Below, piece after piece: positions 2,180 through 51,888 of a stretch of 64,000 bases of DNA. Each line of letters starts with the position of its first letter. Position 1 is the stretch's first letter. Origin of the DNA: Deltaproteobacteria bacterium (lineage in GTDB: Bacteria; Myxococcota_A; Polyangia; HGW-17; JAJRWW01); contig JAOZUO010000003.1 in assembly GCA_029938605.1 (NCBI GenBank), positions 26,592-90,591 on the forward strand, written 5' to 3'. The position numbers and the translations under genes are program-made. The notes below the pieces were generated by a model, which worked only from the letters and a program-made list of their open reading frames with translations, was not told where the DNA came from and searched no databases.

Positions 2180-3487
2180 TCACCCTGCGCCCCGGCGGTC
2201 AGCCTCGTCCAGGGACTTCCCGGCGTTCTGATCCTCGGAGTCCTTCCGCCGCTCCTGGAGCATGGCGGCGCACCGCTCATTAAACCGCATGCGCTCGTCG
2301 TCGTCGTTTTGCCGCATGTACACCGCGTGGGATGGGAAAGCAAACTCCACGCCGATCTCGGAGAGGGTCTGCATGAGCCGCAGGTTCAGCGACTCGCGCA
2401 CGGCCAGGAACTCCGCCCAGACGGTGGTCTTGGAAAAGCAGTAGATCATGATCTCCAGGGCGGAGTCGGCGAAGTCCGTGAAGTACACCAGCCAGAAGTC
2501 CTGGCGGATCTCCTCGTGGTTCCGCAGCACGTCCCGGACCCGGGCCAGGGCCTCGCGCATCTGATCCGGCGTGGTCTCGTAGGTCACCCCGATGCGGAAG
2601 GAGATCCGTCGCTTGAACATGCGCGAAAAGTTCTCGATGGCCGATCTGGCGAGCGTATCGTTGGGCACCAACACCAGGGAGTTGCCAAAGGTACGCACCT
2701 TGGTGGATCGGAATCCGATGTCCTCCACGGTGCCCTCCACGTCCTTGGTCTTGATCCAGTCGCCGATGTCGAAGGGGTAGTCCCCGACGATGGTGATGGT
2801 CCCGAAGACATTGGCGAGAGTGTCCTTAGCGGCGAGGGCCACGGCGAGACCGCCGATGCCCAGACCGGCGAGGATGCCGGCGATCTGCACGCCCGACTCC
2901 TGCAGCACCATGAGGCCGGCGACGATCACGATGGCCACCCGCATGACGCGATCCACGAAGGGCACCAGCCGATCGTCGAGCGGGGACTTGGTCTTGGCGG
3001 TCAGCTTCGTGAGAAAGTGCGTGCCGAGGCCCACCGAGCGGGTCAGGGCCCAGGCGCCAATGACGATGAGGGCCACCACCAGCCCCTTGTTGCTAATGGC
3101 GTCGTAGTTTGTGGGGTGGCGCGGGAGCTTGAGGATCGCAAGGGCCGCGTAAATGTTCAACACCTGGAGCACAGCGCCGATGGGGGGCCTAACGGCCTCG
3201 AAGAGCTTGTCGTCCCACTCGGCGTCGGTGCGCTTGGACATCCGGGCTAAAAACCCCATGAGGATGCCCAGGATGTACTTTCGGGCCAGGTAGATCATCA
3301 CCAGCACCCCAAAGGCCGCGGCGATACGCCAGGCGTCAAACCCCACAAACTGCTGTGTGATCATAAACTCGTGCACAGTGTCCCAGATCGATCTCCAGTC
3401 CATATCCGCTCTCCCAACTGGGCAAACGCCCCAACTCCTGGGCCGCGCACAGTGGTCCCACCCTAACGGGGCGCAATGAAATTGCAA
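2180..3487 (-). CDS. mechanosensitive ion channel protein, MscS family
   Basis: N-terminal TM helices followed by the conserved MscS beta-domain (ITIVGDYPFDIGDWIKTKDVEGTVEDIGFRSTKVRTFGNSLVLVPNDTLARSAIENFS) and a C-terminal extension. Confidence 0.8.
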   Translation of the reverse strand: MQFHCAPLGWDHCARPRSWGVCPVGRADMDWRSIWDTVHEFMITQQFVGFDAWRIAAAFGVLVMIYLARKYILGILMGFLARMSKRTDAEWDDKLFEAVRPPIGAVLQVLNIYAALAILKLPRHPTNYDAISNKGLVVALIVIGAWALTRSVGLGTHFLTKLTAKTKSPLDDRLVPFVDRVMRVAIVIVAGLMVLQESGVQIAGILAGLGIGGLAVALAAKDTLANVFGTITIVGDYPFDIGDWIKTKDVEGTVEDIGFRSTKVRTFGNSLVLVPNDTLARSAIENFSRMFKRRISFRIGVTYETTPDQMREALARVRDVLRNHEEIRQDFWLVYFTDFADSALEIMIYCFSKTTVWAEFLAVRESLNLRLMQTLSEIGVEFAFPSHAVYMRQNDDDERMRFNERCAAMLQERRKDSEDQNAGKSLDEADRRGAG

Positions 3488-3567: not shown

Positions 3568-4590
3568 ATGAAAAAAATCCTCCTTCTAATTATTCCTGTG
3601 GTCCTGCTGGCTCCGATGAGCGGTTGCAAGACCAAGAAGAAATCGCAGTCCGGCCCCGACAAGAACCTCGAGGCGCTGCAGCAGTCTGGGGAGAAGCTCA
3701 AGGCCAGCGCGTCGGATCTGCTCAGGCGGCGCGGCAAGCTCCAGACCAACCGCAAGCAGATCGATGCGGCCCGCAAGGCCCTGGAAACCAAGCGTTCCAC
3801 CCTGGCCAAGGACGACATCGAGGGCCACGCCAAGCTCGTCAAGGAGGAGATCGCTCTCAAGAAAAAGGAGACTGACCTACGCATGGCCGAGGGTCAGGTC
3901 AACGACAAGCTCATGGGCGCACTGCAGCGACAGGAGCAGTTCTTCGCCCGGGCCACCGCGGCCCTGAAGGCCAAGAGCACCAGTGGTGGCGGGGACGCCA
4001 CGTCCAATGTGCGTGGTCGGGAGCACGGAGTGGCCCTGCGGGAGAAGGCCGTGGCGCGCCGGGAGAAGGCCGTGGCCCAGCGGGAGAAGGCCTTAAACGA
4101 CCAGTACCGGAAGATCGTCGACTACAAGGCCAAGAAGTGCGCCGTATCCACCACCATGGTCACCACCATCTCCGCGCCCTCCATGCCCGCAAGCGGCGGC
4201 GGGCGCAGCTACACCAAGGCAGACGCCAAGGCCGCCTACGCCAGGGCCATGTCGACCATGTCGAGCAAAGGGATCCGGATATCGGATCTGCCCTCGGGCT
4301 TCTCCAAGCTCATCAGCAACATCAAGAAGTTCATCCGTAAAAAAGAGTACGCCCGGGCCAAGATCGGCGCAGACCAGCTCCGGGCCACCCTGCGCTCCAT
4401 CAAGATCAATCGCGGCTTCGTGGGCGCCAAGATGGGCCGCCTGGCGGCGTACATCCGCCGGAAAAAGCTGAGCACCGCCAAACGCGAGAAGGTCAGCAAG
4501 CTCTTCGTGCAGGTGACCACGGCCTTCACCGACGGCCGGTTCTCCTCGGCCAACGGAAAGATCAACCGCATCTACGGCGTGATCAGGTAA
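3568..4590 (+). CDS. lipoprotein with a long coiled-coil region, function unknown
   Basis: Lipoprotein signal MKKILLLIIPVVLLAPMSGC. Heptad-like, KE-rich sequence and a repeated REKAVA motif. Confidence 0.5.
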   Translation: MKKILLLIIPVVLLAPMSGCKTKKKSQSGPDKNLEALQQSGEKLKASASDLLRRRGKLQTNRKQIDAARKALETKRSTLAKDDIEGHAKLVKEEIALKKKETDLRMAEGQVNDKLMGALQRQEQFFARATAALKAKSTSGGGDATSNVRGREHGVALREKAVARREKAVAQREKALNDQYRKIVDYKAKKCAVSTTMVTTISAPSMPASGGGRSYTKADAKAAYARAMSTMSSKGIRISDLPSGFSKLISNIKKFIRKKEYARAKIGADQLRATLRSIKINRGFVGAKMGRLAAYIRRKKLSTAKREKVSKLFVQVTTAFTDGRFSSANGKINRIYGVIR

Positions 4591-4656: not shown

Positions 4657-5148
4657 ATGTACAGACTGTGCTCTCTGATGTTTCTGCTCGCTGGGCCGGG
4701 CGATGCTTCGCCGCTTCCCTCGGCGGAGCTGCCGAGCTACGGAGGGTTACTTCTAAAAACCATTCTGGCGCTGGTGATCGTCATCGGGCTGGCCTACGCG
4801 CTGCTGCGCTGGGGGCTCAAACGACTGATGCCCGGGCACGCGTCCGGTGGTGGCGAGATCAGCATTCTGGATCGGCAGCCCTTGGACAGCCGCCGCCAGG
4901 TGGTGCTGGTCAAAGCCTACGGGCGTTACCTGCTGCTGGGCGTGGGGGACGGATCGGTCACGCTCCTGACAGAGCTGGAGGCCGAAGCGGTGGCCGAGGC
5001 CGAGCGACGACGGGCGGCCCATCCCCCGAAGCGCTTCGCCGACGTGCTGCGCTCGGCCCTGGGGCGTAACAAACCTCCCCCCGAGCCCATCACCCCCAGC
5101 GACCACAGCGATGATCGCCAGGCTGACAAGGACCGGCGCGATGAATAG
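4657..5148 (+). CDS. fliO: flagellar-type export apparatus protein, FliO-like
   Basis: Single TM helix (ILALVIVIGLAYALL) followed by the FliO-like motif EISILDRQPLDSRRQVVLVKAYGRYLLLGVGDGSVTLLTEL. Sits immediately upstream of fliPQR. Confidence 0.55.
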   Translation: MYRLCSLMFLLAGPGDASPLPSAELPSYGGLLLKTILALVIVIGLAYALLRWGLKRLMPGHASGGGEISILDRQPLDSRRQVVLVKAYGRYLLLGVGDGSVTLLTELEAEAVAEAERRRAAHPPKRFADVLRSALGRNKPPPEPITPSDHSDDRQADKDRRDE

Positions 5149-5306
5149 GGTCCGACCAGGAATAGGCCGGTCAGCTCAGGTCGTCGAGGCGCCCCGGTGG
5201 CAAGGACCAAGGAGCGAGGAAATCTCCATGATTCCGAGTGACGAGGGACGCAGTCAGCGGGGATGGATCGGCGGGCTGAGCGATCTGCCTATTGCTGGTC
5301 GGACCC
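5145..5306. repeat. ~160-bp imperfect palindromic element with 16-bp terminal inverted repeats (family A/B), between fliO and fliP
   Basis: The 5' end gggtccgaccaggaat is the reverse complement of the 3' end att(g)ctggtcggaccc. It is ~88% identical to 10900-11062. It contains ggagcgagga-N7-ATG (5211-5230) in frame with fliP. Confidence 0.75.
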
Positions 5307-5311
5307 ATAGA

Positions 5312-6037
5312 GTGCTCTCCCTGGGGCTACTCCTACCTCTGCCCGCCCTGGCCCCTTCCGGAGATCGGCTGCTGGACAGCCCGCTGCTGGCCGTACTCGT
5401 CGTGGCCGCGCTGTCGCTGTTGGGCTTCGCCGTGGTGATGCTCACCAGCTTCGTGAAGGTGGCGGTGGTGCTGTCGGTGTTGCGCTCGGCCATGGGCACA
5501 CCCCAGGTGCCGCCCACCCTGGTGATCACCGGCTTGGCCTTCGTGATCGCGGCCTACGTCATGGCGCCGGTGGTTCGGCAGACCGTGCGTATTGTAGAGC
5601 CCGAGGTGGAGCAGCTCAAGGCTGGGGGCGGCTCCACCGCCGAGCAGGTGCAGCGCTACGCGGCGGCGGGAAAAAAGGCCGCTGGACCCATGCGCGGCTT
5701 CCTCAAAAAACACGCCCATTCCCGGGACCGGGCCTCCTTCCTGGCCATGGCCCGGCGCCTGCACGAGCCCCAGGACCGGACGAAGATCCACAGCGACGAC
5801 TTCCTGGTGCTGGTGCCGGCCTTTCTGACCAGCGAGCTGAAGGAGGCCTTCATCATCGGATTCTTTTTGTTCGTGCCGTTTCTGGTGATCGACCTGGTGG
5901 TGGGGAACATCCTGCTGGCCCTGGGCATGCACATGCTGTCGCCCACGACCATCTCCCTGCCCTTCAAGTTCCTGCTCTTCGTGTTGGTGGACGGGTGGCA
6001 CCTGCTGACCCGGGGCCTCATCGCAGGATACCTATAG
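5312..6037 (+). CDS. fliP: type III secretion / flagellar export gate protein FliP (SctR)
   Basis: The FliP family signature TSFVKVAVVLSVLRSAMGTPQVPPTLVITGLAFVIAAYVMAPV and four TM helices. Start taken at GTG 5312; an in-frame ATG at 5228 inside the upstream repeat is an alternative. Confidence 0.85.
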   Translation: MLSLGLLLPLPALAPSGDRLLDSPLLAVLVVAALSLLGFAVVMLTSFVKVAVVLSVLRSAMGTPQVPPTLVITGLAFVIAAYVMAPVVRQTVRIVEPEVEQLKAGGGSTAEQVQRYAAAGKKAAGPMRGFLKKHAHSRDRASFLAMARRLHEPQDRTKIHSDDFLVLVPAFLTSELKEAFIIGFFLFVPFLVIDLVVGNILLALGMHMLSPTTISLPFKFLLFVLVDGWHLLTRGLIAGYL

Positions 6038-6050
6038 CAGGAAATTTATT

Positions 6051-6329
6051 ATGGAAGACACGATTCTTCGAGTGGCCAGGGAAGGGATGCTCCTGGTGCT
6101 GGTGTGCAGCGCGCCGCCTGTCCTGGCGGCCCTGGTGGTGGGGCTGTTCATGGGCGTGCTCCAGGCGGCCACCCAGGTGCAGGAGCAGACCCTCAACCTG
6201 GTGCCCAAGATCGTCGCGGTGACCGTGGCCCTGCTCGTGGCCGGGCCCTGGATGGGCAGCCAGCTTCTACGCTTCACCGAAGCCCTGATGGTGGCCATCG
6301 CCCAGGTGGGTCGCATGGGCGGGCCGTGA
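6051..6329 (+). CDS. fliQ: export gate protein FliQ (SctS)
   Basis: 92-aa two-TM protein with the FliQ motif GLFMGVLQAATQVQEQTLNLVPKIVAV. Confidence 0.85.
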   Translation: MEDTILRVAREGMLLVLVCSAPPVLAALVVGLFMGVLQAATQVQEQTLNLVPKIVAVTVALLVAGPWMGSQLLRFTEALMVAIAQVGRMGGP

Positions 6330-7138
6330 CCGATCTCCTCTCGGCGCTGCTGGACAGCGGTGAGCTGGAGCAGTACGTGGCCATCTTCTTTCTGGTGGCC
6401 GCCCGGTGGCTACCGCTGACCATCCTGGCGCCCATCTTCGCGGCACGGTCCATGCCCGCCACGGCGCGGCTGGGTTTGGCCTTCGCCCTGACCCTGCTGG
6501 TCTTCGGGGCGGCCCACTCGGCGAGCGGCCCCGTGGCCTCGGGCTCGACGACCCTGGCGCTGCTGGTGGTGCGGGAGGTGCTCGTGGGCGCACTCCTGGG
6601 CCTGGTGGTAGCCATCCCGTTTTACGCCCTGGAGGCCGCCGGACGCCTCATAGACACCGCCCGGGGCGCCCGCATGGCCGAAGTCCTCGCGGCGCCCGCG
6701 GGGATCCGCACCTCACCCACCGGCGCCTTCCTGCTGCTCATGGGTGTGGTGCTCTTTTTGCTGGTGGACGGGCACCTGATGGTGATCAGCGCCGTGGGCC
6801 AGAGCTATCAATCCCTGCCCGTGGGGGCTGAACTACCGCCAGACGCCCCCGCCCGGGTGTTACCCCTGGCCCTGCACCTGGGCTCCGAGCTGCTGCTCGT
6901 GGCCCTGGGAATCGCCGCGCCCGTGCTGGCCACCGCGGTGCTGGTGGATCTGTCCCTGGGCCTCGCCGGACGCCTTGCCCCACGGCTACCCCTGTACTTT
7001 CTCGGCCTGCCCCTCAAGGGCCTCGGTGGCATCGCCGTGCTCCTGCTCACCCTCTCGGTATTGCTCTGGTCCCTGGGCGGACTGTACCGACTCACCCTGC
7101 ACGCCTTGGAGGCGACCCTGGCCACCCTGGGGGGATAG
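6326..7138 (+). CDS. fliR: export gate protein FliR (SctT)
   Basis: Polytopic membrane protein. The GTG at 6326 overlaps the fliQ stop (GTGA). The track ORF 6104-7138 shares the frame, but its upstream part overlaps fliQ. Confidence 0.8.
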   Translation: MTDLLSALLDSGELEQYVAIFFLVAARWLPLTILAPIFAARSMPATARLGLAFALTLLVFGAAHSASGPVASGSTTLALLVVREVLVGALLGLVVAIPFYALEAAGRLIDTARGARMAEVLAAPAGIRTSPTGAFLLLMGVVLFLLVDGHLMVISAVGQSYQSLPVGAELPPDAPARVLPLALHLGSELLLVALGIAAPVLATAVLVDLSLGLAGRLAPRLPLYFLGLPLKGLGGIAVLLLTLSVLLWSLGGLYRLTLHALEATLATLGG

Positions 7139-7213
7139 TGCAAGGTGTCAGGGTGTCAGGGTTAACCCCGTTGGCGTTTCAGGGTATACTTCCGCCCGTA
7201 AAGGACGTGCATC

Positions 7214-9460
7214 ATGGGAAAATGGGAAAAGCTCGCGGATGACATCGAAGACGAAGAGGCGCATACCAAGGTGCCCGAGTTCGAAGACTCAGTGGTGGAC
7301 GTGGTGGATCCAGCAGACGTCACCATGCCGCCAGAGATCCACGGCTGTCAGGTGATCGAGCGGCGCCATCCGGGCGGACAGTCGGAAGTGTTCTACTGCC
7401 GGCCTGACGGCGTGGTCTACTCCGAAGTCCAGGCCACCGAGCTCATGAATGCTTTCCGGGCCGGTGCGGCGGCTGGCGGCCCGCCAGCGGTTAGCGGCCC
7501 GGCGGCCGACATGGTCATCGACACCCTCGGCTCCGGAGAGGACGTGCCCGCGCAGCTCCGAGGCGCGAAGCTGGTGGACCGGGGGGGGAGCTTCTTTTTC
7601 ATCACGGTCGATGGCGGGGAGCTGCCCAAGGAGATAGGCGACAGCCTCTTTGAGGCCTTCGAATCCCCCGAGGTCACCAACCCGGGACTGGAGGTCAAGG
7701 CCGCCGACCTGCCTCAGGAATCCATGCCGGCGCCTCTGCCCACCGAAACGGTCATCGACACCCTGGGCGACGGTCCGGACGTACCTCCGGCGCTCCGCGG
7801 CGCGAACCTGGTGGAGCGGGACGGTAGCTTCTTTTTCATAACACCGGACCAGGAGGCCATCCCCAAGGAGATCGGCGACGATCTGTTCGACGCCTGGGAT
7901 GCGCCGGAAGAGGGGGAGGCCGTCCCCCAGGAACAACCAGCCGCGCCAACGCCGGAGGCTGAGGTACAAGCGCCTGAACCCCAGGCTCAAGAGCCGGAGC
8001 CGGAGCCGGAGCCAGAGCCGGAGCCGGAGCCGGAACCTGAACCCGCACCAGCGCCAGAGTCGGAGGCAGAGGTTCAAGAGCCAGCACCAGCACCAGCGCC
8101 AGAGGCGGAAGCGGAGCCAGAGCCAGAGCCAGAGCCGGAGCCGGAACCAGAGCCGGAGCCGGAGCCGGAACCAGAGCCGGAGCCGGAGCCGGAGCCGGAA
8201 TCAGAACCAGAACCAGAACCAGAACCAGAGGCGGAAGCGGAGCCAGAAGCGGAAGCGGAAGCGGAAGCGGAAGCAAGCAGCCCTGGACCGGAGGAGGAGA
8301 TCCTGGAGTTCCTCGGCACCGGGGAAGAGGTCCCGCCGAGGCTTCGAGGCGGCCGCATGGTCAAACGGGTAGACGGCTTCTATTACGTGACAGCGAACAA
8401 CGAAGTCCTCCCGGCCGATATCGGCGAGGACCTCATTGAGGCCTGGAACTCCGAGGCGGAAGCGGAACCTCCCCCGGCCGACGACCGGGAACCCAACCCC
8501 GTGAACAAACCCTTCGGCTACGGCGACTACGGACCGGTCACCGTCCCGAACTACGTCCTGCCCGAGACCATCGACGTACCCCAGTCAGCCGCTCCAACGG
8601 GGCCGAGCGCCGCGCCCACCGCCGACGAGCCCACCGCCGACGAGCCTACCGCCGACGAACCCACCGCCGACGAGCCCACCGCCGACGAACCCACCGCCGA
8701 CGAGCCCATCGTCGACGAACCCAAAGTCGAGGCAACCTCCGCTCCAGTCACCGAGAAGCTGGAGGCCGGGAGTCTGGAAGATCGGCTCAGACAAGCCGTG
8801 ACCACCGTCCGACGGGAGGCGACCACGGGGGCCTTCAATGTGGCCCAAGCCACCCCCACGCCCGAGCAAATGGAGTCGCTGGTGAACGAGCTCATCGACT
8901 CCGAGCCCACAGACACCATGCTCTCACGCATGGTACTTCGCTCCACCCAACTGACCGAGCAGATCTCCGAAGCCTGGGCGGACGACGAGAGCCGGGGCCG
9001 CCAGGCTCTGCACCGGGACGTAGTCAGCGGCACCTTGCTCGTAGTCGCCGTGAACCCAACCCAACTCAAGGACCTGGATGTGCTCGGCCTGCTCACCCTC
9101 CTTCGCTTTCGCACCACGAAAGGGACCGACCGGGTGGTGGCCGAATTGGCCAAGACCCTACGCTCCAAGCTGGCCGACGATCTCAACCGAGCCATCAAGG
9201 CCTCCTCCCTCACCGACCAGGTCCTGCAGGGCGCACGATCTACGGCCGGCGTCGTCGTCCATGGACAGCTATGGCCCGAGGGGGTCACCCTCCTGGTCGC
9301 CCAGACCATTACCCGCGAGATCTCTCTGACCGTAGGTGAGGTATTGAGCGGCTATCGGGAGAAGGGATACGCCTTCCCGGGCCTTGCGGAAAAGGTCCTC
9401 GAAGCCTATCGTCACTTCGCGACGGATATCGGCGAACGAGTGGCCCGTGCCATCGAGTAG
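7214..9460 (+). CDS. large acidic repeat protein of unknown function
   Basis: 748 aa. It has three tandem ~55-aa repeats ([49 protein letters not shown] and two variants), a long (PE)n/(EPEA)n tract, six PTADE repeats, and a ~230-aa C-terminal region that is not low-complexity. Confidence 0.7.
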
Positions 9461-10845: not shown

Positions 10846-10899
10846 TATGTGATCGAGTGTAAAAGTGTGGTAGTACGACCAGCAATGACTCGCATCCAA

Positions 10900-11062
10900 A
10901 ATAGGGTCCGACCAGGAACAAGCAGGTCTGTTCAGGTCGTCGAGGCGCCCCGCTGGCAAGGACAGAGGAGCGAGGAAATCTCATTGATTCCGAGTAACGA
11001 GGGACGCAGTCAGCGGGGATGGATCGGCGGACTGGGCGATCTGGTTATTCCTGGTCGGGCCC
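10900..11062. repeat. second copy of the family A/B imperfect palindromic element, between the two paralogous lipoprotein genes
   Basis: ~88% identical to 5145-5306. TIRs are gggtccgaccaggaac / attcctggtcgggccc. Carries gaggaaatctcaTTG in frame with the downstream gene. Confidence 0.75.
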
Positions 11063-11940
11063 TTAGCCGATGGTCCTTCGGCCTGATCGTCTTCGCTGGG
11101 CTGGTACTAGCCGACGGTGGCTGCTCCAAGAGTCGGGCGGACGATTTCTCGAAGTTCAAGCCGTCAGAGTCCCTCCAGTCCCCGGGCGCCACTCCGCGTA
11201 CGCAGCTACGCTATCGCCCCCCCGCGGGCCAGGACGTGACCTACCAGCTCATCGTGAACCGTCAGTGCCAAGCCCTCGGCCTCCAGGCGAAGATGCGGCT
11301 GCGGGTGGCCTTGAAGGTGGACACCCTGAGCAGCGGTGGAGGCTCCTTTGTGCTGCGCTTGATCAGCCTACAGCGACTGCAACCCCTTCCCCCCGGCGGG
11401 CTGCCTGAGCTGGGACCCGCCTACGTACTGCTCCAGGGCCGAATCGGACCTCGGGGACGATTGACCGAAATTCAGGACGGCGACAGGTTGCCCACACCGG
11501 TGAACCTCGCCCTCGTGTTGCCGCTGCTGCTGCCCCGTTTGCCCGAGTCCTCCGTGGGCATCGGCGCCACCTGGCGCACGTCGGCTAAGCAGCGCTGGAA
11601 GCGCGTCCATTCCGCCGACGCGCTCACCAGCCAGCCGGGCTTCAACGGCTCCACGGAGGTGCTGCTGCACAGCGCCTACAAGCTCACCGCGCTGCAAAAC
11701 GCCAACCAACCCGTGCTCCAGGGCGACCTCAGTTTCAAGCTCCGCAGCCGCACCCGCGCCCTGAGCCACGCTACCCACCATGGAGGTCAAGGCAAAGCCA
11801 CGGCGCGCTACGTTCTGGACCCCACCACCTCTCTCCCCGTCCACGCCAAGGTCACCCTCCAAGGCACGTACAAGCTACACGCCAACGACAAAACCGCCCC
11901 CATCAAAGAGACCATCGAGCTAACCTTCAAACAGGACTGA
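10984..11940 (+). CDS. lipoprotein, paralog 2. The start is uncertain; a TTG inside the repeat element is the first in-frame start.
   Basis: Same frame as track ORF 10849-11940. Has a hydrophobic leader SFGLIVFAGLVLADGGC and TQLRYRPPAGQ resembling paralog 1. No ATG or GTG lies between the repeat and the leader. Confidence 0.45.
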   Translation: MIPSNEGRSQRGWIGGLGDLVIPGRALSRWSFGLIVFAGLVLADGGCSKSRADDFSKFKPSESLQSPGATPRTQLRYRPPAGQDVTYQLIVNRQCQALGLQAKMRLRVALKVDTLSSGGGSFVLRLISLQRLQPLPPGGLPELGPAYVLLQGRIGPRGRLTEIQDGDRLPTPVNLALVLPLLLPRLPESSVGIGATWRTSAKQRWKRVHSADALTSQPGFNGSTEVLLHSAYKLTALQNANQPVLQGDLSFKLRSRTRALSHATHHGGQGKATARYVLDPTTSLPVHAKVTLQGTYKLHANDKTAPIKETIELTFKQD

Positions 11941-22957: not shown

Positions 22958-23565
22958 CGTCTCGCAGCCTCACAGCCTCGCAGCGCACTGCATATCCGCT
23001 GAAGGCCCCACGCGGGGAGACGGATCTCTGAATAAGGTCCAAACCGGCAGAAATCGATGTACTTCGTTTTCAGCAGAGTTTCTCCCTGATAAAGAAAAAA
23101 ATCCGAACACCCAGACGTCAGGGGTCACCCACACCGCCAGCGCTACGCACCAGGCTCGCGGTCAACGGCGTGTCAGTACAGTGAGGGCGGAGGAGGATAA
23201 TCGGACGCCAAAGACGTGCTCCACTGCGGCGAGGCAGACGAACGTCGCCACCGGTGGTTCCGCCGCCGGGCAGACGGCCGGCAGGGACCACCGGAACTTC
23301 CCAACTGGGGCCCACCGGCGCTGAAGCGAACGTCGCCCAATCCGGTACTCAGGGATCCCGTGGGCTGTCCCGTCGTGGATCGGCACCCTTCGCAGCTCAC
23401 AGCGGGCGCATACCTGTCTAGGTGCCCAAACCGCATTCCCGATGGTTGAATCCTTGGGTTTTTCCCCGACTGCGCCAACCGCTGGTGAAAAAACTCATCC
23501 CAGCACCACCGATGTTCTCGCCGCCGCCGACACCTACGTCGACCAGCGCTTAGTGGCCGTTGAAT

Positions 23566-23752
23566 GTTTCACTTTTTCGCCAGATAAATCACCTCTGCCA
23601 AATCTGAAACAGAAAGGGCCCTTTGGTGTTCCACTTTCGGCCCAGATGCGTCATCTCAGCCAAATCTGAAATAGATTTGGCCCTTTGGTGTTCCACTTTC
23701 CCGTCAGATAAATCATCCCAACCGATTCTGAAACAAATCTCCGCTGACAGAG
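23566..23752. repeat. ~62-bp tandem repeat x3, each unit carrying a hairpin (ccaaatctgaaatagatttgg), inside a 1.2-kb non-coding region
   Basis: The units begin gtttcactttttcgccagataaatc..., gttccactttcggcccagatgcgtc... and gttccactttcccgtcagataaatc.... The palindrome in the central unit is perfect. Confidence 0.6.

Positions 23753-30614: not shown

Positions 30615-30615
<1 letters not shown>
29941..30615 (+). CDS. clpP: ATP-dependent Clp protease proteolytic subunit
   Basis: [24 protein letters not shown]...NSPGG...[12 protein letters not shown]...IMIHQP with the Ser-His-Asp catalytic triad context. The true start may be an internal ATG at ~29977. Confidence 0.9.
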
Positions 30616-31859
<1,244 letters not shown>

Positions 31860-34649: not shown

Positions 34650-34721
34650 GGGCGGGTAGCTCAGTGGGAGAGCGTCGGCCTTACAAGCCGAGGGTCACAG
34701 GTTCAAGCCCTGTTCCGCCCA
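34650..34721 (+). tRNA. tRNA-Val (anticodon TAC)
   Basis: Cloverleaf: acceptor GGGCGGG/TCCGCCC, D-arm GCTC-AGTGGGA-GAGC, anticodon arm TCGGC-CTTACAA-GCCGA, T-arm ACAGG-TTCAAGC-CCTGT. Confidence 0.85.
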
Positions 34722-34738
34722 CTTTTCGATGTACGTTT

Positions 34739-34812
<74 letters not shown>

Positions 34813-34879: not shown

Positions 34880-35056
34880 GGCTAAGGGCCCGCTCGAATA
34901 TTAGTTGTCCAGTTCAGGGCGTTGAGGCGCCCGGCTCGCGAGGCACGACGAGGCGCATACTTATTGATATGCAACGAGAAGTAACGAAGCGAGCCAGCGA
35001 TGCATCGGCGGCCTGAGTGATCAAGTAATATTCGATCGGGTCCTAAGGGCCCTAAT
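34880..35056. repeat. ~175-bp imperfect palindromic element (family C/D), second copy, downstream of the tRNA pair
   Basis: Shares the 74-nt core (34921-34995) with 2019-2178 in inverted orientation. Its arms end in gggccc-containing termini and are self-complementary at ~65%. Confidence 0.7.
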
Positions 35057-39817: not shown

Positions 39818-40110
39818 TCGCTCGCTTAGCCCCCGCTACGGATGTTCCCCTTGCCGCTCCAGCGGGGCGCTGCAAGAGCGGCTGCGGAGAAATCCTCCAC
39901 GGGGGCGACGCTCGCTGGGTGGTGCTTACACGGAAATTTGCGAGGCATACGATACTCGATGATACGCGCTGTGCCGCTCGCTTAGCCCCCGTTCCGGATG
40001 TTCCCCTTGCCGCTCCAGCGGGGCGCTGCAAGAGCGGCTGCGGAGAAATCCTCCACGGGGGCGACGCTCGCTGGGTGGTGCTTACACGGAAATTTGCGAG
40101 GCATACGATC
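39818..40110. repeat. tandem direct repeat, 2 x 156 bp, in the cooC-acsE intergenic region
   Basis: The unit ctcgcttagcccccg(c/t)t(a/c)cggatgttccccttgccgctccagcggggcgctgcaagagcggctgcggagaaatcctccacgggggcgacgctcgctgggtggtgcttacacggaaatttgcgaggcatacgat recurs at 39821 and 39977. Each unit holds the hairpin gccgctc...gagcggc. Confidence 0.8.
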
Positions 40111-40174
40111 AACGGAGCGGACGCGGAGCGGACTATCCGAGCTCGGTAACGAGGAAAACGGCTCTACATAAGTG

Positions 40175-40262
40175 AGCGGAGCCCGCACGGAGGATTTCAC
40201 GGCAGCCGCTCTCGCAGCGCTTCGCTGGAGCGGCAGAGTGAATCCTTCGTGTGGGCGAAGCG
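40175..40262. repeat. partial third copy of the 156-bp unit, in inverted orientation
   Basis: cggaggatttcacggcagccgctctcgcagcgcttcgctggagcggcagagtgaatcc is the reverse complement of the unit core with a few substitutions. Confidence 0.65.
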
Positions 40263-40325: not shown

Positions 40326-41219
40326 CTAGAGATCTAGCCAGGAGTCGGAGTAGAGCTTTTGGCCGAGGAGGACCTGGGTGGTCTTGACGTAGTCGGTCTC
40401 TTCCTTGGACAGGCCGGCCATATCGGGTACGTCGCCGTCCATGATCTTGCCCACGATGGTCTCGATGTCCTTGCGCTTACCGCGGGCGATGTCCATGAGG
40501 CCCTTGTCGAGGGGATCCACGATGGCGCCCTTGAGGCCGGCCCTCAGGAGCATGGCAAAGTAGGTCTGGTTCACCAGCGGGCGAAGCTTATCCGGGCAGC
40601 CATTAGAGATGTTGGACAGGCCACAGGTGGACATGCACTCGGGGAACATGTCGGGCATCATGAGCATGAAGTTGGTGCAGCCCTGGGCCTCGATCTGCTG
40701 GGAGCTGACCGGCACCACGATGGGATCCACCCAGATATCCTCACCCGCTAGACCCGCCTCCTGGGCGGGGTACACGATCTCGGAGGCGAGCACGCCGCGC
40801 TCATTCTCGTCCCGGGGGATGCCCTCGGGGCCCCACAGAAGCGCCACCATGCCGGCGTCGTACTTCTTGGTGAAGGGCATGAGCTTCTCCATCCGGTCCG
40901 GGCGCGCCATGATGGAGTTGATGACGGCCTTGCCGCCCTTGTTCTTGTAGACCTTGAGCCCCGCCTCCATGGCGTCTACGTTCATGGTGTCTAGGTACAG
41001 CGGCAGATCAGAGACCTCCTGCACCGCGCCGACGACAAACTGCATGAGCTCGTCGCCCTTTTTGCGGGCCGGCCCCAGATTGACGTCCAGATAGTCCGCC
41101 CCCGCCTCGGTGAGCCTCACCGCGAGATCCTGGATAGGTTTGACGTCCCGGTTCTTCATGGCCGGGCCGATGGACTTGGACATCACGTTGATGTTTTCAG
41201 CGATTACCTTGAAGGACAT
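40326..41219 (-). CDS. acsE: methyltetrahydrofolate:corrinoid/iron-sulfur protein methyltransferase
   Basis: Pterin-binding TIM-barrel signature (IGERINV-like MSFKVIAENINVMSK..., GADYLDVN, VDPLV-like IVDPLD). Confidence 0.85.
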   Translation of the reverse strand: MSFKVIAENINVMSKSIGPAMKNRDVKPIQDLAVRLTEAGADYLDVNLGPARKKGDELMQFVVGAVQEVSDLPLYLDTMNVDAMEAGLKVYKNKGGKAVINSIMARPDRMEKLMPFTKKYDAGMVALLWGPEGIPRDENERGVLASEIVYPAQEAGLAGEDIWVDPIVVPVSSQQIEAQGCTNFMLMMPDMFPECMSTCGLSNISNGCPDKLRPLVNQTYFAMLLRAGLKGAIVDPLDKGLMDIARGKRKDIETIVGKIMDGDVPDMAGLSKEETDYVKTTQVLLGQKLYSDSWLDL

Positions 41220-41295
41220 TGGGATCTCCTCGGTGGCGCAACCCTAAGCGCCAGGCAATAATGTCGTCTTGATTCCTAACGCCTGGTCTGCACGA

Positions 41296-42645
41296 CTAGG
41301 CGAAGTGCTGCTTGAGGTAGGCCGGGATGAAGCTGGCCTCACGAGGACCGACCATGACCTCCCACTCGTCACCCAGCTCCTCTTCGAGGTCACCGCTGAT
41401 GATGGCCGCCAGACCGGGGATGACGATCTTCTTGTTGGCGATCTTGTCGTTGCAGCCCTGCTTCTTCATGGATTCGCCGATGGAGTCACCCACGAACTTG
41501 CCTGCCGCCCATGCGGTCAGCACGGAGAGGCCGTCGGTGTCCTTGACGTAGAGCCAGCACGGGATCCGGCTGTTCTCGATCTCGCCACTCACGATGAAGT
41601 AGGTGAGCGAGAAGTTCGAGGTCACCACCACGGGGCTGTCCGCCGTAGCGTCGTTCATGGAGTAGAAACCCTCGTCGGTCTTCATGGGCCGCTGCGGGTC
41701 GGTGTAGATGTTCAGTCGCTCCAGGAGCAGCGGGAACAGGTACTGGCCCTGGAAGTCGGACAGAATGATGATGCCGGCGTACTTGGCGATGCCGGCGGCG
41801 GCAAGGACCGCCTCCTTCATCGGGGTGTCAGCCATGTCGCACACCGGGGCGATGGTCGGGAAGCCGAAGGTGCGGTCCTTGGCCGTGAGGGCCAGGCGCC
41901 GGATGGCGGTCTGGTCCCGAAGCTGATCGCCGGCGGTGCGGGCACCGGAGTCGAAAACCACGTCCTTGATGCCGGCCTTTTCTGCCGCCTCGGACAGCTC
42001 TTTGATCTCGTCCAAGCCGTTGCCGATGACGCCCAGCGACGCGCCGTGCTCCTTGGCCAGTCCACCCATGGCGTCCAGGTTGTCCTTGGTCACACCGTAG
42101 ATGAGCACCTTGGAGTCGTCTCGCTCGGCCAGACCAGCTTTGATCATGTCCGGGTTGTCGGACCAGAGGATCAGCCCAGCGTCCGTAGCGCCGCGCACCT
42201 TCTTGACCAAGGCAGCGTAGGTGTCAGCGTTGCCGGACTCAGCCTTGAGGGCGAACAGATCGCCCTTGAGGAGAAGACCCACCCGCTCGTACTGGTGGTC
42301 GACGAAGCACTTGAGCTTACGGTCGACCTCTTCGGCGGAGTCGCTGTCGCTGATCTTCAGGGCCAGACCCGTGGGGTTGAAGAAAGTCTTCTCGTGACGG
42401 AACATCACGAGCTCGCCACCGGTCTTGAAAGCGTCTTTTCCGGCGCCGATCGCCACGGGGCGGATGGGCGGCGCGGAGGCCTCCGACAGCATGGCCTTGG
42501 CCTCGTCACTCACGTAGGGACATGCGCTCAGCTCAGCCTTACCTGCGGCGAGGTTCATGGCAAACGCCAGGCACGTAGGGACGCCGCACTCCTTGCAGTT
42601 CGTCTTGGGCAGCAACTTAAAAATCTGGATTCCGGTCAATCCCAT
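41296..42645 (-). CDS. acsC: corrinoid iron-sulfur protein large subunit (AcsC/CdhE)
   Basis: N-terminal 4Fe-4S motif TNCKECGVPTCLAFAMNLAAGKAELSACPYVS. Confidence 0.85.
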   Translation of the reverse strand: MGLTGIQIFKLLPKTNCKECGVPTCLAFAMNLAAGKAELSACPYVSDEAKAMLSEASAPPIRPVAIGAGKDAFKTGGELVMFRHEKTFFNPTGLALKISDSDSAEEVDRKLKCFVDHQYERVGLLLKGDLFALKAESGNADTYAALVKKVRGATDAGLILWSDNPDMIKAGLAERDDSKVLIYGVTKDNLDAMGGLAKEHGASLGVIGNGLDEIKELSEAAEKAGIKDVVFDSGARTAGDQLRDQTAIRRLALTAKDRTFGFPTIAPVCDMADTPMKEAVLAAAGIAKYAGIIILSDFQGQYLFPLLLERLNIYTDPQRPMKTDEGFYSMNDATADSPVVVTSNFSLTYFIVSGEIENSRIPCWLYVKDTDGLSVLTAWAAGKFVGDSIGESMKKQGCNDKIANKKIVIPGLAAIISGDLEEELGDEWEVMVGPREASFIPAYLKQHFA

Positions 42646-42747
42646 GTGCCGTTCTCCTAATCGATGGTCTCGGCAGACCTTTGGTGGCCTATCGGGTTCT
42701 TGAGAATTGTTGCCCCCCCGGCGAAGAGCCGAGGGGGGGGGAAATCA

Positions 42748-44961
42748 CTACATCATCGGGTCCATGGTGATCGCCGGGTGACCCTTCTCGGTCAGCCACT
42801 CGAGGATCTCCATCTCATCGGTGGACACGGTCTCGTCGCAGATGAGCTCGGCGAAGTTCTCCGACAGGCCCTGCTTGACGGCCTGGGCGTTGATCCTGTC
42901 CTTGAGCTCTTCTTTGAGGTTCTTGGGCAGCCAGACCAGCCGCCCGATGCCGCCTTCGGCCCTGATGAACTTGCCGGACACCACATACAGCTTGGAGTGG
43001 CCCACAAAGCCCGGGGTCACCGCGCCGCCGCCCACGGTGCCGGCCAGGGTGGTGAACTTCATACCCGAGGGGGTCATGCCGCCGTAGTCGCGATCCACGG
43101 TCATGATGCCGTTACACATGGGCATGATGGCGCTGATGGCCTCGAAGCAGCCGCAGGAAGTCATGGGCTCTTCCATGATGGAATAAGCGTTGTACAGCTC
43201 CACCGTGCCGCGAGAGGCCTGGCGCACGAATTCGTTGACACCCTCCCACTGGCCGCGCTTCTCGTCGATGACGCGCCCCTTCTCGATGGGCTGGTTCGGC
43301 CCCGTGGGGGTGATTTCGAAAGAGGCCTTGCAGTCCAACCAGGAGTAGGCACCACAGAGGCCCGTCCGCTCAGGGGTCACCACGCACACGTGGCTCGGAG
43401 CGAAGGACTGGCAGAGAGTACAGCTGTAGTAGGTCTCCTCGTCCTCGTCGACCATGCCCTCCACACGGGCGTCACGCACGGCGTAGGATGCCCGCGCCAA
43501 CTTGAGGATCTTCTTGGCGTCCTCTTCCTTGGTGAAGATGGTCACCTTCACCTTGTCGAGAATGGCGCCGAACTCGCTGTGGTACTTGGCCCAGATGATC
43601 TCGCCAATATGCTTGAAGCGGAAGCCCTTCTCGTAGGCGGTCTTGGAGATACGGAACCAGGCGATGTCGCGCTGGCCAATGTGCATGCTGCCCTGGGCGA
43701 AGTTCACCAGGTGGTGGATCTGCCGCTCCAGGATGGGCTCGAAGTCGGCCTGGAACTCGCGGCCCGCCACTTCGACCTTAATGCCCAGGGAGCACTTGGA
43801 GTTCTCGCCGAGCTCATCGAGATCGGGACCAATGAGCTGAATGTCGTGGTCCTCGATGGCGTCCATCTCGGCCGAGGTGGTCCACTCCACGGCGAAGGTG
43901 CCGCCACGACCGCCACCGCCCTCGAAGTAGATGTCCGGCCCACGCACGCGCTCGCCCTCGAAGGCGGCACCGTAGGCTACGGGAACCTCTACCTTGGACA
44001 CGTTGACCTTCAGACCACGGACCTCCACCGAACGCTGAACGATTTCGTCGTGGGGCACATTGGAGACCACATGCTCGTAGGTACACACGCCCGTGGGCAG
44101 GATCTGCGGAATGGGTGTGTCGGCGATAACCGGGAAGCCGTAGTTCACGCACATGAGGCCGTTGGCGTACCACTGGTCGGTGACGTGACCCAGGGTCATG
44201 GCGAAGGCGAAAACGCGGTCCTTGTTGTAGATGAGGACCCTGCGGTAGTCGCCGGGCTCGATGCCGCCGAAGGTCAGGGCCGCACGGGTGGCGAACCCCG
44301 CGGCGAACACCGCCGCGGAGACGTCCGGGCCGAAGGAGACCAGCCGGGTGCCCCAGCCGATCTCCACACCCGCCTCTACGAGCTGCTCGGAGAAGCGCAC
44401 GCCGTTGTGCTCGCCTGCCATGAAGACGTACAGGTTCTTCTGCTGCAGCTCCAAGGCGATCTGAACGGCGATCTCCGTGGTGGGCGCGGCACCTAGGATA
44501 GCGGCAAAGCCCGGGGCCGTGCCGTCGACGAACTCCACGCCGCGTTTCCGCAGGATCACGTCGTCGGCGGCGCCAAGCCAGATGTTATCGTCAGTGACAT
44601 CCTCGCCCCGGACATAGAAGTCGGGGAACTCGAGGTACCTCATGCACTCTTCCATCTCCTGGGCGAACAAGGCCACTGCGCCCGCGTCCAGGGCTGGGCC
44701 CAGGTAGGGCAGATGCACATGCTCCTTGACCAGGGGCGGCAGGAGCATCCGACAGCGGTCGAAGACGGGACCCATGTCTTCCAGCGTCTCGATCTTGTGA
44801 CCGAGCAGGCCGTAGATGCTGGGCAGGTAGTAGCCGGTGTTGGGGAACCCAACCTCGGTCTTACCGCCGTGCGTATCCATCATCTCGGTATATTTTTTTC
44901 GCACGCGCTCCACGATTGCGTGGGCGCCACGGATTCCAGCGGATGCGATGATCTTAGACAT
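42748..44961 (-). CDS. acsB: acetyl-CoA synthase catalytic subunit (AcsB/CdhC)
   Basis: 737 aa with global AcsB architecture. C-terminal A-cluster region with the CGAYSWLDCK...CTLCQSFAPSHVC motifs. Confidence 0.85.
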   Translation of the reverse strand: MSKIIASAGIRGAHAIVERVRKKYTEMMDTHGGKTEVGFPNTGYYLPSIYGLLGHKIETLEDMGPVFDRCRMLLPPLVKEHVHLPYLGPALDAGAVALFAQEMEECMRYLEFPDFYVRGEDVTDDNIWLGAADDVILRKRGVEFVDGTAPGFAAILGAAPTTEIAVQIALELQQKNLYVFMAGEHNGVRFSEQLVEAGVEIGWGTRLVSFGPDVSAAVFAAGFATRAALTFGGIEPGDYRRVLIYNKDRVFAFAMTLGHVTDQWYANGLMCVNYGFPVIADTPIPQILPTGVCTYEHVVSNVPHDEIVQRSVEVRGLKVNVSKVEVPVAYGAAFEGERVRGPDIYFEGGGGRGGTFAVEWTTSAEMDAIEDHDIQLIGPDLDELGENSKCSLGIKVEVAGREFQADFEPILERQIHHLVNFAQGSMHIGQRDIAWFRISKTAYEKGFRFKHIGEIIWAKYHSEFGAILDKVKVTIFTKEEDAKKILKLARASYAVRDARVEGMVDEDEETYYSCTLCQSFAPSHVCVVTPERTGLCGAYSWLDCKASFEITPTGPNQPIEKGRVIDEKRGQWEGVNEFVRQASRGTVELYNAYSIMEEPMTSCGCFEAISAIMPMCNGIMTVDRDYGGMTPSGMKFTTLAGTVGGGAVTPGFVGHSKLYVVSGKFIRAEGGIGRLVWLPKNLKEELKDRINAQAVKQGLSENFAELICDETVSTDEMEILEWLTEKGHPAITMDPMM

Positions 44962-45008
44962 TGCTTCTCCTCAATTGGGCGTTCGCTTCGCAGCTAGTAG
45001 ACCGGGGC

Positions 45009-46964: not shown

Positions 46965-47037
46965 TCGAGACTCCTTGCTCTATCTTCGCCTGTCCCGGAA
47001 GCACCGCCGAAGCGGCCCCGGGGCGCCGGGCGTCAAG

Positions 47038-47802
47038 TTACATGTGTCCTTCTGCCATGGCCTGCTTGGCGTAGAACTCCCGCCGGCAGGTGGGGCAGAC
47101 CGACCGCACATCCTCGTCCATATTGACGGTCTTCTTCAGGTGCGCCAGGTGCTTCTCCGTGGCCACGGCCTTGCCGCAGATGCGGCAGCGCACCAGCTTG
47201 TGTATGGCGCGCCAACGGGGCAGCTCCCGCGTATCAGCCGTGTCGATGACCTCAATGCACTGCGTGGGACAGACCGAGGCGCAGGAGGCACATCCGATGC
47301 ACTCCTTGGACAGGTCGTCAAAGGGCGTGCCCACGTCCTTTTTGTCCCCGCGGCCGATGAAGCCCAGGGCCTCGACGCCCATGACGTCCTTGCACACCTG
47401 AATACACAGGCCGCACAGGATGCACTCCTCACCGCTCACCGGGTAGGCCTGGGCATCGACGCCGTACTCGGCGGCAAGCTCTCGGACCCGCTTGGCCTTG
47501 GGCGCCCGCGCGATGAGCAGCTCGAGTACACCCTTGCGATTCTCTCGGATGTTCTCGGAGTCGGTGACCACCTCGATGCCCGGCAGCACCGGGTAGTTGC
47601 AGGAGGTGGTCAGCTTAGTCTTCTTGCGGCCGTGGGACTCAGCAGTGACCTCCACCAGGCACAACCGGCAGGCCCCATAGGCCTCCACTGCGGGGTGGTA
47701 GCACAGGTGCGGGATATCGATCCCGTTGTCCAGAGCGGTCTGTAGCAGGCTCGCGCCTTGCTCCGCCTGGATGGTTTTTCCGTCGATGACGATGTCAATC
47801 AT
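47038..47802 (-). CDS. iron-sulfur protein with a 2Fe-2S ferredoxin-like N-domain plus 4Fe-4S clusters (NuoG/HndD N-terminal-fragment-like)
   Basis: MIDIVIDGKTIQAEQGASLLQTALDNGIDIPHLCYHP...CRLCLVEV plus CILCGLCIQVC and CIGCASCASVCP. Start set at the ATG 47802, which avoids a 359-bp overlap of the track ORF with the upstream gene. Confidence 0.6.
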   Translation of the reverse strand: MIDIVIDGKTIQAEQGASLLQTALDNGIDIPHLCYHPAVEAYGACRLCLVEVTAESHGRKKTKLTTSCNYPVLPGIEVVTDSENIRENRKGVLELLIARAPKAKRVRELAAEYGVDAQAYPVSGEECILCGLCIQVCKDVMGVEALGFIGRGDKKDVGTPFDDLSKECIGCASCASVCPTQCIEVIDTADTRELPRWRAIHKLVRCRICGKAVATEKHLAHLKKTVNMDEDVRSVCPTCRREFYAKQAMAEGHM

Positions 47803-47842
47803 CTGTAGATGCTCCCTGTTAAATAAATCGACAACCGTGGCC

Positions 47843-49780: not shown

Positions 49781-50253
49781 GCGGCACCTTCCTTCGCGTC
49801 GGCCTTACGGACTTTTTTGACGAGCCGCGAGACCTGGGCAGACTTCTGGTTGCCGTGGTACTCGCCGTCGACGATGACCAGCGGCCCCAGGGCGCAGGCG
49901 CCCACGCAGTTGACCGTCTCGAGGGTAAACTGCATGTCCTCGGTGGTGCCGCCGGCCTTCACCTCGAGAATGCGCTCGAACTCCTCGACCAGCATGGGCG
50001 CGCCCCGCACGTGGCAGGCGGTGCCCATGCACACAGTGCAGATGTGCTTGCCCCGCTCCTCCAGGGAGAAGGCGGAAAAGAAGGTCGCCATGTAGTTGAT
50101 ACGGCTGCGCGACACCCCCATCACCTCGGACACTCGCTCGAGAGCCGGACGCGGCAGGTAGTTGTACTCAGCCTGGATATCCATCAGGACCGCTAGCAGC
50201 TCGGCCTCTTCGGCACCGTAGCGGTCTATGATCTTGTCCACTGTTCTTTGCAT
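49777..50253 (-). CDS. NuoE/HndA-like 2Fe-2S thioredoxin-like ferredoxin subunit
   Basis: HICTVCMGTACHVRGA...VNCVGACALGP. 158 aa. Confidence 0.8.
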   Translation of the reverse strand: MQRTVDKIIDRYGAEEAELLAVLMDIQAEYNYLPRPALERVSEVMGVSRSRINYMATFFSAFSLEERGKHICTVCMGTACHVRGAPMLVEEFERILEVKAGGTTEDMQFTLETVNCVGACALGPLVIVDGEYHGNQKSAQVSRLVKKVRKADAKEGAA

Positions 50254-50347
50254 CGGTGGTCCCTTTGCTTCGTTCGATCCGCGCCTCTATGAAATCCCCG
50301 GCGCACGCGGAAGAGGCAGTCCGCTCGCACGTCGTGTGACCGGACTC

Positions 50348-50845: not shown

Positions 50846-50869
50846 CGTAGATGCCTCCGTTCGCAGTAG

Positions 50870-51817: not shown

Positions 51818-51822
51818 GCTGG

Positions 51823-51831: not shown

Positions 51832-51888
51832 CGTAAATGGCGTACGTCGGCCCCGGGGGCCGGAGATCCACCTGGAATCAAATTCGTC

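Follow-up and report, generated by a model that had tools for sequence, protein, structure and literature searches.

A fliO-fliP-fliQ-fliR export-gate operon standing apart from other type III genes in 64 kb of Polyangia-like DNA

The export-gate operon

The DNA considered here, called the window below, is a stretch of 64,000 nucleotides of contig JAOZUO010000003.1 (assembly GCA_029938605.1), from a Deltaproteobacteria bacterium placed in the Polyangia. It carries an operon of type III export-gate genes, fliO-fliP-fliQ-fliR, the last three of which bear the names sctR, sctS and sctT in non-flagellar type III secretion systems (T3SS):

4657-5148, + strand: fliO (SctR-assembly chaperone), 163 amino acids; Pfam FliO PF04347, E=4.5e-17; TIGR03500, 66.2 against a cut-off of 55.25
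5141-6037, + strand: fliP/sctR, 298 codons, 244 of them native and 54 inserted; Pfam FliP PF00813, E=1.6e-62
6051-6329, + strand: fliQ/sctS, 92 amino acids; Pfam Bac_export_3 (FliQ PF01313), E=2e-28; passes both TIGR01402 (fliQ) and TIGR01403 (SctS)
6326-7138, + strand: fliR/sctT, 270 amino acids, GTG start; Pfam Bac_export_1 (FliR PF01311), E=7.9e-54

An earlier note, made from the letters of this DNA, had described a complete fliO-fliP-fliQ-fliR module at this place. Indeed, all four proteins match their Pfam profiles strongly, with scores far above the curated gathering cut-offs. FliR scores under both NCBIfam equivalog cut-offs (155.6 against 168.6 for fliR, 141.1 against 163.05 for SctT) and aligns over its full length with the solved FliR and SpaR; FliP aligns with the solved FliP and SpaP, near the full length of the solved chains. 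All four genes lie on the same strand, in the order O-P-Q-R, and their starts overlap or are coupled. The stop of fliO and the start of fliP (ATG at 5141) overlap as ATGAATAG, a gap of 13 nt, with an AGGAAA ribosome-binding site, separates fliP from fliQ, and the stop of fliQ overlaps the start of fliR as GTGA, an overlap that the note had already read from the sequence. The gasket region of FliP (GMxMLSP) is kept, LALGMHMLSP aligning to MGMMMLSP of the solved FliP, and its G-M-x-M is invariant in 16 members of the clade defined below. The charged-pair motifs of FliQ, QEQTL...PKIV, can be read in the window translation at positions that we take to be those of E46 and K54 of Salmonella FliQ. 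The module had also been called intact: this holds for the reading frames, which are open, but a 159-bp miniature inverted-repeat transposable element (MITE) that had been missed sits inside fliP.

No second type III locus was found in the 64 kb. The Pfam scan covered about 55 likely window genes, and open reading frames (ORFs) of at least 60 amino acids in all six frames were searched with FlhA, FliI, FlhB and SctQ queries; those for FlhA and FliI correctly recovered both proteins in control loci. In addition, 14 other window proteins, mostly without a Pfam match, were compared to every ORF of the type III loci fetched for this work. Outside 4657-7138, none of these three approaches found a type III gene in the 64 kb, and FlhA, FlhB, the ATPase, the C-ring, ring, rod and hook proteins and the secretin are all absent from the remainder of the window. 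The absence of partner genes from the 64 kb, which had been claimed from inspection, was thus confirmed by profile and ORF searches that returned only O, P, Q and R.

Conservation of the layout

The same orphan layout is found in at least four related lineages, whose FliP proteins are 69-96% identical. The further contexts are L001 (about 96% identical at the nucleotide level), L005/L006 (FliP 89%; contigs of 163 kb and 116 kb, ERZ27252253 k141_1403036 and Ga0272441_10000277), L009 (78%) and L010 (69%). Together with the window they are referred to below as the window clade. The shared gene order, pooled from partly truncated contigs, is (kinase)-tetR-rpoZ-(mscS)-340-amino-acid lipoprotein-fliO-P-Q-R in its 5' part, and acidic protein-Cys-rich lipoprotein-two paralogous lipoproteins-rimO in its 3' part. 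The mscS gene is present in the window and in L005-L007, and not in L009.

Between the window and L005, FliP, FliQ and FliR are 89-90% identical and the products of the flanking genes 61-86%. The ratios of nonsynonymous to synonymous substitution (dN/dS, Nei-Gojobori) are 0.22 for fliP, 0.15 for fliQ, 0.21 for fliR and 0.24 for fliO, compared with 0.26 for rimO and 0.32 for mscS. Purifying selection on P, Q and R is no weaker than on the housekeeping gene rimO.

A gate of non-flagellar affinity

FliP passes the SctR models (TIGR01102, 222.3 above 208.6; NF009438, 244.1 above 179) and fails the flagellar equivalog TIGR01103 (182.8 below 217.45), scoring as an SctR and not as a flagellar FliP, a point on which the earlier note needs correction. 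Its nearest database proteins are unnamed metagenomic ones; those that bear a name are SctR of metagenome-assembled genomes (MAGs) of Polyangia, Myxococcota and Deltaproteobacteria. The solved flagellar FliP and FliR score slightly above the injectisome SpaP and SpaR (147 vs 128 bits and 77 vs 65 bits, respectively). This slight flagellar lean fits the early-branching 'Myxo' group, with long and short loci, described by Abby and Rocha (2012; PMC3459982).

A neighbour-joining tree of FliP from 87 loci was built without bootstrap and without injectisome SctR, and therefore places the clade relative to flagellar and Myxococcota sequences only. In this tree the window clade is sister to the loci L011/L012, then to L026/L017/L021 (all from Myxococcota or Polyangia MAGs, and described below), and these clades stand apart from the classical Myxococcaceae cluster type and from flagellar FliP. 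The named nearest matches and this unsupported tree thus group the protein with non-flagellar SctR of Myxococcota. A FliP phylogeny combined with profiles was the check that the earlier note had proposed, and it points to a non-flagellar, Myxococcota affinity. The tree also put the window clade together with the second Myxococcus xanthus system, a placement that was set aside: the tree carries no support values and the raw identities among the matches listed do not support it.

FliO had been taken as flagellum-specific. This does not hold in this phylum, where FliO is found in non-flagellar Myxococcota loci and, according to a 2025 study, in both M. xanthus systems (PMC12248157). Since all the fetched non-flagellar loci of the Myxococcaceae type carry fliO between sctQ and sctR, its presence is no evidence of a flagellum. 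No flagellum-specific gene (rod, hook, MS ring, switch, stator or flagellin) was found in the window or in any locus of the clade. Judged by their sequences, the gate genes are not flagellar in affinity.

Gate genes of the sister clades

The FliP proteins of the sister clades (L026, L021, L017, L011 and L012) are 53-63% identical to those of the window clade. These Polyangia-type loci are its closest relatives outside the clade and, likewise, have their gate genes among housekeeping genes, in each case just downstream of rpoA-rplQ:

L026:3830-12897: secY-map-(rpmJ, rpsM and rpsK, presumed, those ORFs being unscanned)-rpsD-rpoA-rplQ-fliO-P-Q-R-flhB
L021:4-7082: rpoA-rplQ-pilZ-fliO-P-Q-R-x-flhB-NTP transferase, then priA
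L017:1-9068: rpoA-rplQ-pilZ-fliO-P-Q-R-x-flhB-NTP transferase
L012:4454-18513: rearranged; the same gate genes and flhB interleaved with unrelated genes, an NTP-transferase gene following flhB
L011:1-10699: rearranged; fliO and fliP alone left at the rpoA-rplQ site

The flhB gene that matches L011 lies in the groundwater metagenome from which L011 itself comes (ERZ978390), on a separate contig (L099). Two small genes come after it, and the product of the second is a TPR protein with homology to LcrH-type chaperones in clusters of the M. xanthus type. No ATPase, C-ring or SctV gene lies within about 8-10 kb in L026, L021 and L017. We know of no earlier description of T3SS gate genes beside the end of the ribosomal superoperon. 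Polyangia-type loci keep flhB, either beside fliR or on another contig, and sit by the ribosomal alpha operon, whereas the window clade has O-P-Q-R in another neighbourhood (tetR-rpoZ-mscS ... rimO) with no flhB nearby. The trend in this part of the phylum thus appears to be the progressive dispersal of an otherwise maintained system, and the window clade would be the case in which O-P-Q-R has left both flhB and the ribosomal operon.

Orphan flhB genes, each with two small ORFs, occur in otherwise unrelated contexts:

L096:4472-6392: orphan flhB and two small ORFs
L097:3407-5339: orphan flhB and two small ORFs
L099:827-2713: orphan flhB and two small ORFs (the L011 organism)
L103:859-2641: orphan flhB and two small ORFs

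In L096 the second small ORF has a faint Pfam match to a TPR protein like LcrH/SycD.

Five FlhB proteins were considered as that of the window clade and rejected. P0151 belongs to a true flagellar cluster, P0158 and P0155 come from orphan flhB modules in unrelated metagenome assemblies, and P0125 comes from the organism of L011. P0137 had been suggested by its position in the tree, but calibration by identity puts it inside the L011/L012 clade. As to further members of the window clade, a scan of genome contigs with the FliP alignment gave nothing closer than 56% identity among the matches listed, and a scan of metagenomes with the window FliP gave no clade member among the matches listed, which were dominated by the universal FVLVDGWH pattern.

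Comparison with known systems

Myxobacterial type III systems without a needle are thought to stand near an intermediate between flagellum and injectisome, and one of them contributes to prey lysis by Myxococcus. The two M. xanthus systems, T3SS* (MXAN_2434-2464) and the second one (MXAN_5643-5651), belong to the same phylum-level SctR/S/T family, FliO included; they are non-flagellar and lack any associated secretin or needle gene. The Myxococcaceae loci L014-L016, L019, L020 and L024 have the order SctN..SctQ-FliO-R-S-T-U..TPR chaperones..SctV, and their FliP is about 47-56% identical to that of the window among the matches listed. In the window, unrelated lineage-specific genes replace SctQ upstream and SctU downstream, and no ATPase, SctV, SctJ or chaperone gene lies within the 64 kb. 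Thus, in place of one cluster with SctN, SctL, SctQ, SctRSTUV, SctJ/D and LcrH-type chaperones, the window has O-R-S-T only.

The scattered non-flagellar T3SS of the Chlamydiales is functional with its core genes in several loci (PMC3459982), which shows that clustering is not obligatory; complete systems dispersed in this way are a recognised category. It differs from the present case in being of another T3SS family, with secretin, needle and translocon, and in that the Chlamydia loci each hold several core genes, whereas one locus has been seen so far in the window lineage. The flagellar FliOPQR of Salmonella and Vibrio (PDB 6F2D, 6S3L and 8Z5S) has the same fold family, gene order and translational coupling. 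The window gate departs from it by a FliP below the flagellar equivalog cut-off, by the lack of flhB after fliR and of flagellar genes, and by its non-flagellar placement. Finally, a non-motility role of export genes has been proposed for the 'CORE' of Bacillus subtilis (FliOPQR-FlhBA), with mention of orphan core components (PMC6456723). In B. subtilis, FlhA and FlhB form part of the 'CORE', which is none other than the flagellar apparatus, and no observation made here connects the window genes with nanotubes.

A survey of 46 Myxococcota bins from activated sludge lists, bin by bin, the homologues of M. xanthus T3SS genes (Table S5 in PMC11821767). The Myxococcaceae bin has consecutive T3SS gene numbers, 00381-00401. 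In the Polyangiales bin E1_bin041 (about 94% complete), the numbers are 03784 for SctR, 03770 for SctU, 06190/06191 for SctS/T, 04308 for SctV, 05002 for SctJ and 00187 for FliO; in H1_840 (also about 94% complete), they are 04125 for SctR, 04139 for SctU, 06343 for SctV and 00977 for SctJ (PMC11821767). SctR and SctU are 14 genes apart in both bins, the numbers of the other genes being distant, and E1_bin338 and H1_Bin.72 show a similar dispersal (PMC11821767). The SctV calls of this survey should be reliable, for FHIPEP proteins have, to our knowledge, no relatives outside type III systems.

A probable split-off locus of a scattered system

We lean towards the view that the operon has split off from a non-flagellar, needle-less type III system of the Myxococcota whose genes are scattered. 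That the partners would lie elsewhere is suggested by the analogous cases of the sister clades and the published bins, and by the universal dependence of FliPQR/SctRST on FlhB/FlhA in the systems that have been studied. A split locus was among the possibilities raised by the earlier note; the scattered gate genes of the sister clades and the dispersed Polyangiales bins speak for it, if indirectly. The finding is real and somewhat unusual, and its most probable explanation is an ordinary one for the phylum.

In this Polyangia-like lineage the gate would be physically separated from the rest of the system. By analogy with the solved FliPQR/SctRST structures, FliO would transiently scaffold FliP, and five FliP, one FliR and four FliQ would form a helical channel at the core of the apparatus. 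Export through this channel would need SctU/FlhB, the substrate switch that grips the gate at its base, and a nonamer of SctV/FlhA, which couples export to the proton motive force. Both SctU and SctV would be encoded elsewhere in the genome, and the system containing the gate presumably secretes.

Several points weigh against this explanation. SctU, SctV, SctN, SctQ and SctJ are absent from the 64-kb window and from about 10 kb further upstream in L005. A search with sister-clade FlhB returned 69 FlhB homologues, none of which could be assigned to the window clade; the candidates that were looked up come from other samples. Gene numbers in the fragmented bins of the activated-sludge survey prove non-adjacency only, and its loose homology thresholds could plausibly, in our assessment, over-call SctN, SctL and SctD by taking in F-type ATPase and FHA proteins. 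In the window strain itself, the MITE may impair the expression of fliP. A survey of MAGs, available as a 2026 preprint, finds full T3SS sets mostly limited to Myxococcia (10.64898/2026.07.10.737566); such a restriction fits reduced as well as scattered systems in the Polyangia.

What stands out is that a large, mostly uncultured Polyangia-like group keeps only the gate genes together in one place, under purifying selection, and does so in two layouts: beside the ribosomal-protein operon with flhB, or as bare O-P-Q-R in a new neighbourhood, the window clade. If the partners lie elsewhere, this would be a case of extreme scattering of a non-flagellar T3SS outside the Chlamydiae, and detectors that rely on clusters will miss or mis-score such systems.

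The flanking genes and a possible self-standing gate

The genes that surround the operon bear on an alternative, a gate that works without the rest of the apparatus:

2180-3487, - strand: MscS, upstream of the operon
3568-4590, + strand: 340-amino-acid coiled-coil lipoprotein (lipo340), lipobox LAPMSGC, directly upstream of fliO
7214-9460, + strand: acidic PE/PA-repeat protein, 748 amino acids, downstream of fliR

They are as the earlier note described them: mscS and a coiled-coil lipoprotein upstream, an acidic repeat protein downstream. In this alternative, a form of which the earlier note had also raised, SctV, SctU and the ATPase have been lost and FliOPQR is self-standing with lineage-specific partners, which could be the upstream lipoprotein, the acidic protein and the three downstream lipoproteins; its role could be that of a conduit, an envelope scaffold or a nanotube-type 'CORE' platform. 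We consider this unlikely, although a number of observations would fit it. The layout is strictly conserved across the clade, with the same uncharacterised neighbours, and O, P, Q and R are under purifying selection although no partner is nearby. The acidic protein occupies exactly the position of flhB in the sister clades, and the best fold match of lipo340 is the coiled coil of the IpaB translocator. In addition, no FlhB candidate is assignable to the clade, surveys report few T3SS genes outside Myxococcia, and a non-flagellar role has been proposed for 'orphan CORE components' (PMC6456723). The case that leads us to place the partners elsewhere, namely the analogous sister clades and bins and the dependence of the gate on FlhB/FlhA in studied systems, stands against it.

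That O-P-Q-R alone, genome-wide, with no SctV, SctU or ATPase, forms a selected assembly, a type III-derived channel or scaffold with a new operating mode that would act together with envelope proteins of its lineage (lipo340, and the acidic protein in the place of flhB), is likewise improbable in our judgement. It might then be the end point of a stepwise reduction across the phylum, from a full cluster to O-P-Q-R-FlhB by the ribosomal operon and on to O-P-Q-R. If the genome really lacked the partners, the FliPQR core would perform by itself a function that current models do not foresee.

As to the neighbours themselves, lipo340 keeps its syntenic position in L001, L005 and L009, 10-89 nt ahead of fliO, with which it may be co-transcribed. 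Its family has 176 representatives among 1.84 billion. An AlphaFold2 (AF2) model from a 61-sequence alignment has a mean confidence (pLDDT) of 88 and consists of three long helices and a six-helix C-terminal domain; its IpaB match is indistinguishable from matches to generic coiled coils. The acidic protein is syntenic in L001, L005 and L010 and measures 738-865 amino acids across the clade. It contains three repeats of about 50 amino acids, VIDTLG-x-DVPP-LRGA-LV-R-G-FFF...PKEIGD-LF (seen in the DNA as three repeats of about 100 nt), besides long PE/PA tracts, seven PTADE units and a C-terminal domain of about 250 amino acids that is conserved, and has no signal peptide; a weak promoter-like site lies at 7162-7190. 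A homologue search with the C-terminal domain gave no match, and its single-sequence AF2 model (pLDDT 41) is uninformative.

The conserved flanking genes have no match in Pfam, NCBIfam or the PDB sequences, and are confined to the window clade among all the fetched loci. The idea that they are T3SS parts in disguise was rejected, since they have neither a profile or PDB match nor a homologue in any fetched T3SS locus.

A shorter MscS-like gene (L008:6449-7288) stands within a fuller T3SS cluster, between a 1049-amino-acid protein and SctQ. It is weakly similar to the window MscS (E ~1e-9), which may be a coincidence or an old synteny.

The MITE inside fliP, and whether the operon is a relic

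The inserted codons of fliP are due to the following element:

5148-5306: MITE of 159 bp, repeat family D6, directly after codon 3 of fliP; it has terminal inverted repeats, and its site is empty in L001/L002

Its terminal inverted repeats are of 13 bp (GGGTCCGACCAGG) and it is flanked by a target duplication of 3 bp (ATA). Element and duplication add up to 162 nt, so that the fliP frame is kept and 54 codons are gained without a stop. The native FliP is of 244 amino acids (MNRILSLGL...) and is uninterrupted in L001, the sister MAG GCA_030594985.1, and in L002, both about 96% identical to the window at the nucleotide level, whereas L003, a Logan contig 100% identical to the window, carries the MITE. 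It follows that the insertion took place recently and is peculiar to this strain. When folded, the element gives an almost perfect hairpin (dG -104 kcal/mol, z = -9.9), at the apex of which is a Shine-Dalgarno-like sequence followed by an ATG, AGGAGCGAGGAAA-N6-ATG, the ATG being at 5229.

A second copy at 10904-11062, 89% identical, lies at the 5' end of a gene for a secreted protein or lipoprotein (10885-11940). Both full copies are inserted in the same reading phase, just past the start codon, in genes whose products are secreted or membrane proteins. The gain is of exactly 54 stop-free codons each time, and each copy brings a ribosome-binding site and an ATG or TTG at its apex and has a 3-bp target duplication of the form WTA. 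A degenerate half copy is found at about 61550-61599, near the 5' end of a kinase gene (59186-61615), and a 25-mer of the MITE had no match in JGI metagenome contigs. A frame-preserving MITE in fliP amounts to a small natural experiment on how well the N-terminus of FliP tolerates change.

In L001 an unrelated insertion of about 150 nt (L001:2446-2608) separates fliP from fliQ, compared to 13 nt in the window.

The operon could also be a decaying remnant of a lost type III system, as the earlier note had suggested, or, for this one strain, a gate that the MITE has put out of action recently. No partner is present in the 64 kb, FliR is under both NCBIfam equivalog cut-offs, the M. xanthus loci were once annotated as relics (PMC3459982), and the MITE has given fliP, right at its beginning, 54 additional codons and a hairpin of -104 kcal/mol. 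All four frames are nevertheless open in each sampled lineage, the dN/dS of the gate genes (0.10-0.24) is not above that of rimO, and no other gene of the region is as well conserved as P, Q and R, whose functional motifs are kept. Because the layout is conserved, down to 69% FliP identity, with purifying selection and kept motifs, a decaying remnant is rejected for the lineage. As for a disabled gate, the MITE keeps the frame without stops and brings an internal ribosome-binding site and an ATG; being absent from genomes about 96% identical, it says nothing about the lineage as a whole. Taken together, decay and disablement seem to us a poor bet.

Lastly, a split flagellar operon in a flagellated organism, with flhBA and basal-body genes elsewhere, is hardly credible: FliO is present, FliQ passes the flagellar equivalog and the solved flagellar FliP/FliR score slightly above SpaP/SpaR, but that lean is expected anyway for the early-branching 'Myxo' group, FliP passes the SctR models and fails the flagellar one, the clade falls among Myxococcota loci that are non-flagellar and have FliO as well, and no flagellar-specific gene lies in the window or in related loci.

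Other features of the window

The other window genes are those of housekeeping and metabolism: tetR, rpoZ, mscS, rimO, a TRAP transporter, tig-clpP-clpX-lon, a cluster for carbon monoxide dehydrogenase/acetyl-CoA synthase (CODH/ACS) and Ser/Thr kinases. An Rfam scan of the window found two tRNAs and nothing else, and promoter and terminator scans were at background, except for the weak site before the acidic protein gene.

The CODH/ACS cluster (40326-54134) encodes CdhD, CdhC/ACS, a prismane-type CODH, a corrinoid protein, FolD, a NuoF-like protein, a ferredoxin and CooC-like ATPases. Together with T3SS genes that group with those of Myxococcota/Polyangia, it implies an anaerobic myxobacterial lineage capable of the Wood-Ljungdahl pathway. 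Two ClpX paralogues (30615-31859 and 61660-62943) share stretches of 100-250 nt that are 74-75% identical.

Several repeats were also seen. An 82-nt inverted repeat pair, 2068-2149 and 34914-34995, is 96% complementary, intergenic and 32.8 kb apart; one arm lies between rpoZ and mscS and the other right after the two tRNA genes (34650-34812), and the arms taken singly are little structured (z ~ -1). Upstream of the CODH/ACS cluster, the intergenic region 39819-40242 contains two direct copies of 135 nt (99% identical) and an inverted partial copy of 72 nt. Three tandem units of 62 nt, 71% identical to the first, occupy another intergenic region (23555-23740), and an array with an 18-nt period (repeat family D1) lies at 59293-59738, within the gene of an 809-amino-acid Ser/Thr kinase.

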